From Escherichia coli (GTDB lineage: Bacteria > Pseudomonadota > Gammaproteobacteria > Enterobacterales > Enterobacteriaceae), in the NCBI RefSeq assembly GCF_011045215.1, contig NZ_CP049201.1: DNA of 64,000 nt. One strand, given 5' to 3'. The notes beneath the pieces were generated by a model that saw only the letters and a list, made by a program, of their open reading frames with translations, was not told the DNA's origin and searched no databases. The position numbers and the translations under genes are program-made. The stretch's first letter is position 1. Each line of letters starts with the position of its first letter. Of the stretch, positions 34,191 through 40,465 are shown piece after piece.

Positions 34191-35237
34191 TTAAAAATCT
34201 TTCGTTATTTCTCTGACCGTCTGATTAAAACGTTCCTCTTCCAGTTCCACGCCAATCGCCCTGCGTCCCAGCAACAGTGCCGCTTTTATCGTGGAACCTG
34301 ACCCCATAAAAAAATCTGCGACCAAATCGCCTGGACGGCTGCTGGCAGTAATTATCTGACGCAACATATCCGCCGGTTTTTCACAGGGATGTTTGCCCGG
34401 ATAATACTGCACGGGCTTGTGCGTCCAGACATCCGTATAAGGAACGACAGCCGATACGGAAAAATAACGCCGCAGTGATTTGTATTCCTCCAGCAGGCTG
34501 ACATATTGCCGGTTCAGTTCGCTGTATGTGCTGACCAGCTGGTGATGTGGCTGCTCCAGTTCACCGCGCTGGTGTTTTTCTGCCGCCACACGTGCAAACA
34601 GCGCCTGCAGTTTACTGTAATCGGCCTCATTCGGTAACTGCCACTGACTGGTACCAAACCAGTGCGAAACCATGTTTTTCTTTCCGGTGGCTTCAGCTAT
34701 CTGTTTTGACGTTATCCCCAGTGATTCACGCGCATCACGGAAGTAAGAAATCAGCGGGGCCATCACGTGCTGTTTAAGCTCGCGCCCCTTTGCCGCATAG
34801 CCGTCATTTTTTGGCTGGTATGGCCCCTGATAATGTTCAGCAAACAGAATGCGCTCTGTTGCCGGGAAATACGCCCGCAGGCTTTCCTTGTTGCACCCGT
34901 TCCAGCGTCCGGACGGCTTCGCCCAGATAATGTGGTTCAGCACATTAAAGCGCTCACGCATCATGATTTCGGTGTCAGATGCCAGGCGATGACCACAGAA
35001 CAGGTAAAGACTTCCGGCAGGCTTCAGTACCCGCCAGAACTGCGCCAGACATCGGTCCAGCCATTGCAGGTAATCATCGTCGCCCTTCCACTGGTTATCC
35101 CAGCCCTCGGGCTTCACTTTAAAGTATGGCGGGTCTGTGACTATCAGATCGACAGAGTTTTCCGGTAATGTCCGGATAAATTCCAGGCAATCCGCGTTGA
35201 TTAACTCACAACTGGATATTTTTACAGTATTAGCCAT
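34191..35237 (-). CDS. DNA methyltransferase (DPPY motif; N6-adenine or N4-cytosine), orphan
   Basis: 348 aa; IVTDPPYF near N-terminus and FMGSGST near C-terminus; no adjacent restriction endonuclease gene. Confidence 0.85.
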   Translation of the reverse strand: MANTVKISSCELINADCLEFIRTLPENSVDLIVTDPPYFKVKPEGWDNQWKGDDDYLQWLDRCLAQFWRVLKPAGSLYLFCGHRLASDTEIMMRERFNVLNHIIWAKPSGRWNGCNKESLRAYFPATERILFAEHYQGPYQPKNDGYAAKGRELKQHVMAPLISYFRDARESLGITSKQIAEATGKKNMVSHWFGTSQWQLPNEADYSKLQALFARVAAEKHQRGELEQPHHQLVSTYSELNRQYVSLLEEYKSLRRYFSVSAVVPYTDVWTHKPVQYYPGKHPCEKPADMLRQIITASSRPGDLVADFFMGSGSTIKAALLLGRRAIGVELEEERFNQTVREITKDF

Positions 35238-35387: not shown

Positions 35388-35585
35388 TCACTGCGAAAGG
35401 CGTCTGTAACAACCGAACTGATAATCTGCCAGACCCGCCATAACAAGCTGGGTCAGTATTAACTGGCAGCGTTCGCGTGAAAGGTAAGTATTCTGCGCAA
35501 TTTCCCCGACGGTCGCCGGTTCGGTGACGCTTAATTCATTAAACACCACTCTGGCGGTTTTGGTCATATCCTGCTGTTTTAGCAT
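35388..35585 (-). CDS. Hypothetical small protein
   Basis: About 65 aa from MLKQQDMTKTARVV...; ORF track 139-aa version likely over-extended. Confidence 0.3.
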   Translation of the reverse strand: MLKQQDMTKTARVVFNELSVTEPATVGEIAQNTYLSRERCQLILTQLVMAGLADYQFGCYRRLSQ

Positions 35586-35902
35586 GTCTTTTTCCCTATT
35601 CCGGTTAACGTGACATACCAATAACTCTTGTCTGAAAAGCCAGCAAGCTGAAAAACCGGTATTCGTAACCACCAGCGCGTTTAACGTACTGCACCACTTT
35701 TCGGGCACAAAAAACCCGCCTAACGGCGAGCTTAAGCTGTGTAGCGAAGTAACCACTCTTAACACACTAAGCGAAAAAATGCGGACCGCGTTAGTGATTT
35801 TTAGCAAGTTTTGCTTTATTTTTCCTACGTACAGTAAAAATAAGAAATCAATTCCAGCCAGGCTGGCTGAGTTAACACAGGTCTTAGAATGAGGGAACTT
35901 CT

Positions 35903-36913
35903 TTGTACGAAATACATTACGACGTTGAGTCTGAACAGCAAGCTTTTGAATTACTTGAACGTTACCTAAACGGACAAGCTTTACCCGAAAAAATTAGTTT
36001 CAATGGTTGGCCAAGTCTAACCATCAGGTTGACTGGTGAAAAATTCAACAAATCACTCACACCTTCAGTTATGAAAGGATTTGTTGAAATGCAATCGCAA
36101 CTCAATAAGTCTTATGCGCTAGCAAAGTTCGGAACTCCTGATGTCCGCAGGCTAACAAAAGAAGAACTTGATGCTTTAGAAATTGAAGTTACAGTAGAGC
36201 AAGGTTCATCTCTTGTAGAGATTAACATTGATGGCTTCCTAAGCAAGCTTACGCACGAACTGGTAGGGAAAATGAACGCCACAGAGATTGTATTTACGGT
36301 TCTCGGTGCTGCCGTTATATGGGGCGGTGTAACCGTCTTCAAACGCTATCTGGATAACCGTAAAGATACTCGGTTGGCTGAAATTGCTAAAGAAGGCGAC
36401 AAAGAACACCTACGCGCAATGCAAGTGATGACACAGGAGGAAACAAAACGCCTCCAAATCATCTCAGAAATGGTGGCTAAAAAACCTCTACTCGACAATA
36501 TGGATCGAATGTCTTATGACGCTAAAACCACCATGGTTAAATCTTTCGTGCGTTCAGATTCAGCAGAAATTGACGGTGTCACAATAGATTCAGAAACGGC
36601 AAAAGAGCTAGTAACAAATGCTCGTCGACGCTCAGTTGAAATGAGAATAGACGGTATATACCGTATCGAAGAAGTGAATAATACCGACCCCGAAAGCTTC
36701 AAAGTTAAGGTTCGAAAGGTCGATTCTGATCAACGTTTGACCTGCGTTGTTCAGGATATATTCCTTGATGAATCAGGGAACAAAGAAGCCTTACAGCGAG
36801 CTGAATGGGAAAGAAAGCCTGTGCATTTAAGCATCAATGCCAAACACATTGATGGAGATATCAAGTCCGCCGTAATTTTACATGTGAAAGATGTTGAAGA
36901 TAAGCCCGAGTAA
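35903..36913 (+). CDS. Hypothetical protein, reverse-oriented AT-rich moron downstream of Q
   Basis: 336 aa, opposite strand to all flanking late genes, one central hydrophobic segment (IVFTVLGAAVIWGGVTVF), low GC; no family recognised. Confidence 0.5.
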   Translation: MYEIHYDVESEQQAFELLERYLNGQALPEKISFNGWPSLTIRLTGEKFNKSLTPSVMKGFVEMQSQLNKSYALAKFGTPDVRRLTKEELDALEIEVTVEQGSSLVEINIDGFLSKLTHELVGKMNATEIVFTVLGAAVIWGGVTVFKRYLDNRKDTRLAEIAKEGDKEHLRAMQVMTQEETKRLQIISEMVAKKPLLDNMDRMSYDAKTTMVKSFVRSDSAEIDGVTIDSETAKELVTNARRRSVEMRIDGIYRIEEVNNTDPESFKVKVRKVDSDQRLTCVVQDIFLDESGNKEALQRAEWERKPVHLSINAKHIDGDIKSAVILHVKDVEDKPE

Positions 36914-36928
36914 TCGGGCTGTCTGGTT

Positions 36929-37318
36929 TCAAGATTCCACTTCGGCATCCATTTCTAAACTTACATCCAACATACTCAGGCAACCGTCGATAAACCCTTC
37001 AGCCATCTGTATCTCTATACGTATCAATTTCTCATCCTTCCAACGCGCCTTTGCAATCTTGCGCTTGGATATCCTGTATAAATAATGTGCCACAAGAAGC
37101 GAATGCTCATAAGGCCTTTTTTGCTTTAAACAAGCAAGACAACCTTCAATAATTAATGCGTCACTATCTGAACAAGCCAGGCGTTTCTTACTGGTATAGG
37201 GCAGAAGTCCCTTAAACCCGGCAGCTATAGGTGAATAGTCCACACCCGAGCTATCACTAGCCGCCCATGCCCCCCAACGCTCAAGAACCATCTGAATATC
37301 ACGCGCCATCGTTACCAC
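36929..37318 (-). CDS. Antitermination protein Q-like
   Basis: 129 aa immediately upstream of late/lysis region and downstream of RusA, Cys-containing; lambdoid Q position. Confidence 0.6.
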   Translation of the reverse strand: MVTMARDIQMVLERWGAWAASDSSGVDYSPIAAGFKGLLPYTSKKRLACSDSDALIIEGCLACLKQKRPYEHSLLVAHYLYRISKRKIAKARWKDEKLIRIEIQMAEGFIDGCLSMLDVSLEMDAEVES

Positions 37319-39648: not shown

Positions 39649-40102
39649 AGCCTGCTTCTCCTTGCCTTTCGGCACGTAAGAGGCTAACCTACGTTTGTGT
39701 AGCATAGATTGGGCCTCAGATTAATGTTAAGCGTCTTGCCGGACGCGTAATGTTAACTGGGGCTTTTCTCTGTCTGCCTTACAGTGGCATGCCCGAGGCA
39801 GACAGCCTCAGGCACCCGCAACAATCTTACCGACACCGATAAGAAAACGCTATTTTTTATTGCCAGAACCTTCTGCCCAGGCTAATGTATCCGCGTCAGA
39901 ACGGCGCAATGCGCTCGCCTGAGATACGTTTACTTGTCATTGGTGGCAACAGATAACGGCAATTGTTGTTTCTGTTTGTTTCCTTCAAAAACCCCGGACC
40001 ATCAATCCGGGGTTTTTGTTTGTTATCCCCAGCGGCAAATCGAATACACCATCAGCGCCACCGCCATCGCAATTCCTGCCGTTGTGAATGCTTCAGGCCA
40101 GG

Positions 40103-40465
40103 TCATCGTAAAATATCCTCCACGCTTATCAGTCCGTTTCGCTCCAGGTAGTCCATCACCTTATCCGGCAGTTTGCAGTCCGGCTTCGCTTTCCTCAGTT
40201 GCCAGGTTAACTGCTTTACCTGCATGGTTAACTCGTCGACCAGACGCTGATACCCCACTGGTTTGTATTCATAAAATTTACCAACTGGCGCTGCTGCCAG
40301 CGATTGCAGTGCAATTTCCAGAACAGCAATATCCATCTTATATGCGCGAATGAGGTCATGGTCGATTGTACCTGGTATGCACAGTCTCTGTGATTCAATA
40401 GTCTCCTCTGCGTGGGCTATTAACTGCTCTTTGGTAAACCGTTCTTCTTTGGTCAAAGTCGCCAT
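40103..40465 (-). CDS. Hypothetical protein
   Basis: 120 aa ORF. Confidence 0.4.

Follow-up and report, generated by a model that had tools for sequence, protein, structure and literature searches.

What is a reverse-oriented, AT-rich gene doing directly beside the late antiterminator gene Q of a lambdoid prophage? We asked this of a 336-codon gene in a stretch of 64 kb of Escherichia coli DNA, which we refer to, at its full length, as the window. A preliminary description, made from the sequence and its open reading frames, had placed the gene on the plus strand at 35903-36913, next to the Q stop codon, and had proposed that it is phage cargo, expressed from its own promoter in the lysogen, with an anti-phage or host-fitness role. 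The gene is present at exactly these coordinates, and this interpretation turned out to be largely right and is partly supported by the analyses below. The gene, its start and end signals, and its convergent neighbour are as follows.

35903..36913, plus strand: cargo gene of 336 aa, a member of PHROG 6191; an intact ORF in the 64-kb window
35891..35905, plus strand: Shine-Dalgarno sequence GAGGGA (35891-35896) and conserved TTG start codon (35903); from the sequence
36903..36920, plus strand: hairpin AGCCCGA-GTAA-TCGGGCT over the stop codon, then GTCTGGTTTC; from a terminator scan and the sequence
36929..37318, minus strand: late antiterminator Q, convergent with the cargo gene; phrog_79, E=9e-45

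The neighbour had been correctly taken for Q, and comparison with homologues indicates that its real start is probably the ATG at 37309. A RusA gene and a DUF968/HNH gene precede Q, as in many lambdoid prophages. The adjacency of the two convergent genes stands as described; the distance does not, as we measured 15 nt rather than 16 bp between the end of the cargo gene and the Q stop codon. This gap contains the 3' arm of the hairpin at 36903-36920, which sits between the convergent gene ends and is likely the terminator of the cargo gene, with a T-containing tail and a poor T-run. The gene had also been called the sole plus-strand gene of the late region, and this holds: from ~21.5 to 46.5 kb, all tested genes with PHROG matches lie on the minus strand, and the remaining plus-strand ORFs of at least 110 aa overlap longer minus-strand ORFs, with the partial exception of an ORF at 39934-40353 that is without a PHROG match.

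The cargo gene is AT-richer than its neighbours, as first noticed, with a GC content of 0.415 (41.5%) against a window mean of 0.494 (49.4%). This places it at the 3.3rd percentile of 1011-nt windows, about 2 SD under the mean; the GC content of Q is likewise low (0.454). Codon composition agrees, with a GC3 of 0.37 compared to 0.47-0.57 for the RusA, DUF968/HNH and methyltransferase genes, whose overall GC is 0.51-0.53. Against orthologues, pN was 0.03-0.09 and pS 0.63-0.75 (dN/dS about 0.02-0.04), with synonymous sites near saturation and with pN at about 0.2 in the two most distant comparisons. Constraint was present in all three parts of the encoded protein. The cargo gene is a real, intact and strongly constrained accessory gene.

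Translation would begin at a TTG codon nine bases past GAGGGA. The first in-frame ATG is codon 57, and conserved residues would be lost if it were used, so we take the TTG as the start. Its complement is invariant in an alignment of 17 loci in which the gene lies beside Q (the Q slot), and TTG begins 28 of 37 distinct 5' ends in the family (GTG 3/37, ATG 6/37), a preference that spans all genomic slots, down to about 30% identity. TTG is the start of only a few percent of E. coli genes, and weak translation is common among proteins that are harmful in excess. The conserved TTG looks like selection for weak translation. Upstream of the gene, a sigma-70 consensus scan of 35586-35902 gave no promoter match; by eye, a weak TTGCTT-N18-TAAAAA can be seen.

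The statement that the protein has no recognisable family stood for the annotated collections and fell for PHROG. A Pfam search with the cargo protein and 37 family members gave no domain, PADLOC-DB v2.0.0 gave 0 families at E<=1, NCBIfam gave only sub-threshold matches, in which the hydrophobic segment was aligned to MetS, a small membrane subunit, and the PDB sequences, queried both with the protein and with its profile, returned chance matches only. The protein does, however, match the HMM of PHROG 6191, an unannotated family, over its full length (E=8.4e-143; profile positions 5-337/338 align to residues 3-334). A word-indexed search recovered 82 relatives from Enterobacter, Salmonella, E. 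coli, Klebsiella, Serratia, Yersinia and other hosts, each annotated as a 'hypothetical protein', and the nearest named relatives of the window protein are from Enterobacter. In a profile search of 1.8 billion representative proteins, 1,405 clusters (50% identity) from across the Proteobacteria were found at E<=1e-3, and 506 of them reach E<=1e-30. Among the 150 clusters listed, nearly all members are about 320-360 residues long and are matched over their full length; the family has a single domain architecture, typically of about 330-345 aa. Relatives in AFDB come from Haemophilus, Vibrio, Pseudomonas, Neisseria, Acinetobacter, Burkholderia, Rhizobium, Caulobacter and Desulfonatronum, all of them uncharacterised, and full-length conservation reaches about 25-30% identity over many bacterial classes. 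The carriers are mostly temperate phages of Proteobacteria; only three cultured phages in INPHARED have a relative. An E. coli orthologue, WP_000357056.1, is 86% identical and has the same Q/methylase synteny (APEC O78); its accession was not found in the main texts of the literature searched. By these comparisons, the family is large, unnamed and outside all characterised families.

The surroundings of the gene contain the following further features.

35732..37304, no strand: mobile 1.57-kb cassette of late-promoter element, cargo gene and Q; from BLASTN block ends and a synteny table
35732..35810, minus strand: conserved Q-linked element (~75 nt), AAAAATCACTAACGCGGTCCGCATTTT...TGTGTTAAGAGTGGTTACTTCGCCACACAGCTTA; kept in 17/17 aligned loci despite differing downstream flanks
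35707..35730, minus strand: hairpin CTCGCC-GTTA-GGCGGG with TTTTTTGT, a putative tR'-like intrinsic terminator ending the short leader; from the sequence
35388..35585, minus strand: first late-operon gene past the terminator, 65 aa, phrog_331; context, outside the cassette
34191-35237: DNA methyltransferase gene, next after the phrog_331 gene

The cassette boundaries come from a BLASTN comparison of the region with about 90 related loci. The similarity block begins at 35709-35753 in most Q-slot loci and ends at 37304, the 5' end of Q, in all of them; the cassette is common to about 50 prophage loci, and on either side the flanking DNA differs or has diverged much further. From its position, conservation and linkage to Q, we infer that the element at 35732-35810 comprises a putative pR', a Q-utilisation site (qut) and the first part of a short leader RNA. 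The -35 and -10 hexamers of pR', like those of the cargo-gene promoter, could not be placed with confidence in the sequence. Most of the 17 aligned loci have a hairpin and T-run at the tR'-like position; the sequence varies, and the stem-plus-T-run shape recurs.

The Q-linked element occurs in 203 phage records, mostly those of Stx1a/Stx2a converting phages, and among the matches listed it sits at or just after Q. In the Stx2a phage Stx2_EH2201, the element begins at the Q stop codon and the cargo slot is empty; past the element come the same small ORF, a DNA methylase, tRNAs and stx2A. The order of phrog_331 gene and methyltransferase recurs in E. coli APEC O78 and in Stx2a and cdtI phages, and the window Q is 76% identical to the Q of Stx2_EH2201 and 88% to that of cdtI. 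Because the element abuts Q in Stx2a phages, the 336-aa gene is cargo put in backwards between Q and the putative late promoter. Other cargo is found at the same place: the slot of phage cdtI holds two unrelated reverse-oriented genes (orf53/54), and SfIV has two other reverse-oriented genes (48/49) upstream of the same Q-linked element. The slot genes of cdtI and SfIV have no PADLOC match, and their PHROG matches are all of unknown function, so no guilt by association extends from them to the 336-aa gene. The Q-to-lysis interval had been called a moron and cargo hotspot in the preliminary description, and with this Q family now seen beside an empty slot, beside this gene and beside unrelated genes, that view is borne out; the hotspot would be, more precisely, the interval between Q and the conserved Q-linked late-promoter/terminator element. 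A gene lying between a regulator and its co-adapted site should be hard to split from them by recombination, which would account for the tight linkage of gene, Q and element across hosts. Presence/absence polymorphism, divergent base composition and a likely terminator of its own identify the gene as prophage accessory cargo, that is, a moron.

Below about 67% identity the Q context is gone and another context dominates. Here the relative lies 18-311 nt downstream of a CI-like repressor gene, on the same strand, and divergent from cro, cII and replication genes (L054/L069, L056, L057-L064, L068, L070, L071, L072 and L082). The repressors of these loci were confirmed as phrog_4/CI-like with S24 domains. 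The same slot is occupied in Moraxella phage Mcat17, in E. coli phage phi458, where the repressor is annotated as CI, and in two metagenomic prophages with HTH_3+Peptidase_S24 repressors; L086 and L088 are listed too among the loci with a CI-like HTH+S24 repressor before the gene. At L060-L064 the repressor shares 98.7% identity with lambda CI, and DNA similarity to lambda returns right past the family gene, at lambda 35550-35824 on the pL/oL side; thus, the family gene fills exactly the rexA-rexB interval. According to previous work, the cI-N interval is a mosaic hotspot where rexAB and bstA reside, and it ranks with the most strongly transcribed parts of a prophage in the lysogenic state (PMC8585504).

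Other positions were seen as well. A P2-like phage carries a relative after an HTH_3 repressor-like gene, Mu-like phages have relatives at two positions, one of them within the head-gene operon and on the same strand, L055/L067 have theirs at the prophage end, between integrase and tail-fibre genes, and at L081 the relative is co-oriented and lies between methylase and lysis genes. Neighbours differ from locus to locus, and the contexts examined revealed no conserved partner gene. The position of distant relatives directly after CI-type repressors, with exact replacement of rexAB in lambda-immunity prophages, strongly suggests lysogen expression and an anti-phage role.

AlphaFold2, run with a 37-sequence alignment, gave a confident, compact model (pLDDT 87, pTM 0.86) made up of an alpha/beta N-terminal part (residues 1-125), a hydrophobic helix (about 126-147), a helical part (148-215) and, at the C-terminus, an OB-fold (about 245-330). 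Conservation is highest within residues 1-125, in the motifs LTGEKFxxSLTPSVMKGFxxxQ, E88 and G101-S102-S103, which are nearly invariant in 244 sequences; Q64 and R241 also count among the invariant residues. In the predicted model, the C-terminal five-stranded beta-barrel superposes on known OB-folds. The matches are generic, with metal-binding CusF/SilF, toxin B subunits and SSB/PriB scoring alike; the OB-fold proteins as a group (CusF/SilF, AB5-toxin B subunits, SSB/PriB/RPA) are among the nearest known comparisons. Comparison of the whole-protein fold with solved, viral and annotated predicted structures gave no match. Relatives in AFDB fell into two groups when superposed on the model, one with TM-scores of 0.8-0.9 at 2-5 A rmsd and the other with 0.6-0.7 at 13-16 A rmsd. 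The split may point to two domain arrangements, or may reflect prediction uncertainty and nothing more.

The hydrophobic segment at 128-146 reaches 1.8-2.3 in a 19-residue Kyte-Doolittle window in the enterobacterial clade, and only 1.2-1.5 in many distant members, which leaves a membrane role uncertain. A conserved basic stretch, K(R/K)xLxNRK, comes just after this segment, and a second one, NARR(R/K)S, lies ahead of the OB-fold. When residues 1-125 were modelled alone, confidence dropped to a pLDDT of 69 and a pTM of 0.49, indicating that the N-terminal part is not an independent domain. Mean-field DCA with 244 sequences (Meff 167, noisy) gave 24 top pairs between the helix and residues 1-50 compared to 13.6 expected, a weak enrichment of ~1.8-fold. 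Because residues 1-125 fold poorly alone and are weakly coupled to the helix through residues 1-50, we lean towards a helix 126-147 that is buried in a soluble resting state rather than one that acts as a constitutive membrane anchor.

We consider the gene best read as encoding a single-protein exclusion or abortive-infection factor that is expressed in the lysogen and directed against other phages. On balance we find this probable, and the gene is a good candidate. In such a scheme, the cargo gene would be transcribed in the lysogen, the repressor-slot relatives from the repressor promoter and the window copy from its own weak promoter, within the 100 AT-rich nt that precede it, and expression would be held low through the conserved TTG start. 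Induction would then shut the gene off, in the window copy by convergent pR transcription through Q and in the repressor-slot copies through the loss of repressor-activated transcription. Since pR transcription would run head-on in the Q slot and the repressor would be lost in the repressor slot, both placements could give the same behaviour of 'on in lysogen, off on induction'. The product, acting alone, would protect its host cell either by excluding other phages or by abortive infection.

How it might do so is the most speculative step. The cytoplasmic C-terminal OB-fold, together with NARR(R/K)S, would sense phage nucleic acid or protein; sensing would free the hydrophobic helix 126-147, which at rest would be packed against the N-terminal part, and the freed helix would disturb the membrane or drive oligomerisation. 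We regard this combination of OB sensor and hydrophobic helix as a rather doubtful hypothesis. The extreme purifying selection over the full length of the protein counts against a sensor engaged in an arms race, where such selection is not usually expected. E. coli prophages have reportedly been screened for defences by Brenes and Laub in 2025.

The E. coli orthologue has been listed among candidate defence genes. In Table S10 of the DefensePredictor study, WP_000357056.1 appears as a 'Predicted novel defense gene' with a mean log-odds of 6.55 (range 4.5-9.7) (PMC13092281). There it represents a cluster for which neither HHblits nor Foldseek gave a link to known defence proteins (PMC13092281). 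That study cloned 118 transcription units, and 45% of the high-scoring ones protected; WP_000357056.1 does not figure in the table of units that were cloned and tested, and its listing is a prediction only (PMC13092281). DefensePredictor draws on genomic context and GC content, and so is not fully independent of the argument from position.

Among known systems, RexA/RexB is the closest in position. The relatives at loci with a near-lambda cI (98.7% identical) fill the exact rexAB interval between cI and pL/oL, in lysogens they presumably share a transcript with the repressor, and a logic of sensor and membrane-active effector is conceivable for the family. It differs, however, in being one protein and not two, without a four-helix polytopic membrane partner such as RexB, and the window copy lies outside the immunity region, between Q and the late promoter. 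Homology to RexA was tried and rejected: hhalign of the family profile against lambda RexA gave a probability of 0.1% (E=0.75). BstA of the Salmonella prophage BTP1 resembles the family as accessory single-gene cargo downstream of the repressor in diverse Gram-negative prophages, and its case has shown that this slot can house abortive-infection genes (PMC8585504). In contrast to BstA, neither the cargo protein nor the 37 members have a KilA-N domain, the fold is different, and no sign of an aba-like self-immunity element was seen for the family.

Several observations were counted against exclusion. One Mu-like phage has its member in the head-gene operon, the upstream scan gave no consensus promoter, the hydrophobic helix is of moderate hydropathy in many members, the OB-fold matches are generic, and there is no homology to any characterised defence protein, both PADLOC (0 matches) and RexA (0.1%) included.

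The alternative that survives best is a lysogenic-conversion or host-fitness factor outside phage defence, expressed in the lysogen like bor, lom, nmpC or Stx, and altering, for example, stress tolerance, envelope properties or nucleic-acid metabolism. The repressor slot, the Q slot and the integrase-side prophage end (L055/L067) would suit such a factor equally well, and very strong purifying selection would suit contact with a conserved host target. Moreover, the Q-to-lysis interval also houses stx, as seen in Stx2_EH2201, and nmpC-type cargo; nmpC in DLP12 is cargo downstream of Q. What the gene shares with stx is its status as accessory cargo between Q and the lysis genes of a lambdoid prophage. 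In its placement it differs: stx lies downstream of pR'/tR' and is Q-dependent, whereas the 336-aa gene lies upstream of the late-promoter element and on the opposite strand, so it should be Q-independent, and transcription through Q would oppose it. Against a host-fitness role, the cargo protein has no signal peptide or lipobox, unlike Bor, Lom and porins. The exact rexAB substitution and the DefensePredictor listing favour defence, and the occurrence of the family almost wholly in temperate phages of many unrelated hosts points to a phage-directed role rather than a niche-specific one. We judge a host-fitness role unlikely, while granting it a real share of the probability.

Exclusion could also act at entry, with segment 128-146 as a transmembrane anchor in the inner membrane and the protein blocking entry of the incoming genome without killing the cell, as do P22 SieA, T4 Imm and HK97 gp15. 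This is consistent with the hydropathy of the segment in the enterobacterial clade, with a basic K(R/K)xLxNRK behind it that would obey the positive-inside rule and leave the C-terminus cytoplasmic, with the weak NCBIfam match to a small membrane subunit, and with the lysogen-expressed slots that the family occupies. Such a topology, however, requires export of a 125-aa N-terminal domain that has no signal peptide, and the drop in hydropathy in many members argues against it, as do the compact AlphaFold2 model with its N-terminal part dependent on the rest of the protein and the weak coevolution of the helix with residues 1-50. Known entry-blocking proteins are small and mostly membrane-embedded. 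An entry block of this kind is, in our estimation, quite improbable, and adds a small further share to the probability of exclusion as a whole.

Less probable again, and in our view very unlikely, is a regulator intrinsic to the prophage that would act on the lysis-lysogeny decision or late expression, either through antisense transcription into Q, like the lambda paQ RNA, or through a protein that acts on Q/qut or on repressor stability. The gene does share one cassette with Q and the Q-linked element and converges on Q at 15 nt, the poor T-run of its terminator makes read-through into Q conceivable, and other members lie within the repressor operon. Yet the family also occurs in Mu-like and P2-like phages, where no Q-type gene was seen, and similar, functional Q modules of Stx phages do without the gene, which the Q circuit therefore does not require. 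Hitch-hiking between Q and its cognate site is a simpler account of the linkage, and a purely antisense role needs no strong constraint on the protein. Finally, a spurious or decaying ORF without function, to which the hypothetical-protein annotation, AT-richness and non-ATG start might have pointed, is refuted by conservation across the 1,405 clusters and over the full length down to about 25-30% identity, by a pN of 0.03 against a pS of 0.63, and by the confident fold, and is next to impossible.

We return, then, to exclusion of other phages by a single lysogen-expressed protein. It would belong to a known kind, prophage-encoded exclusion cargo, with the family itself outside any characterised one. 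A bolder version, which we offer tentatively as a possibility, is that of a new and very widespread single-protein system that substitutes for RexAB, with a fold unseen in solved structures, an OB sensor and a latent helix, and with the interval between Q and pR' as an unrecognised slot for defence cargo that is silenced on induction by convergent transcription.

Many candidates of this sort exist; this family is unusually widespread, exactly replaces rexAB in lambda-immunity prophages and is directly testable. If it is defensive, it adds a common single-gene system, with about 1,400 clusters at 50% identity, that current defence finders miss. Since its members reside in prophages of Salmonella Typhi, E. 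coli, Klebsiella, Vibrio, Haemophilus, Pseudomonas and Acinetobacter, such a system could influence the host range of therapeutic phages among clinical Enterobacteriaceae. The exact rexAB swap provides a natural system, and a genetically clean one, in which to ask what selection favours in the 'rex slot', and the placement between Q and the late promoter represents a cargo slot that hitch-hikes with a co-adapted pair of regulator and site. The suggested switch, on in the lysogen and off on induction, would solve in a simple way the self-immunity problem that prophage abortive-infection genes face.

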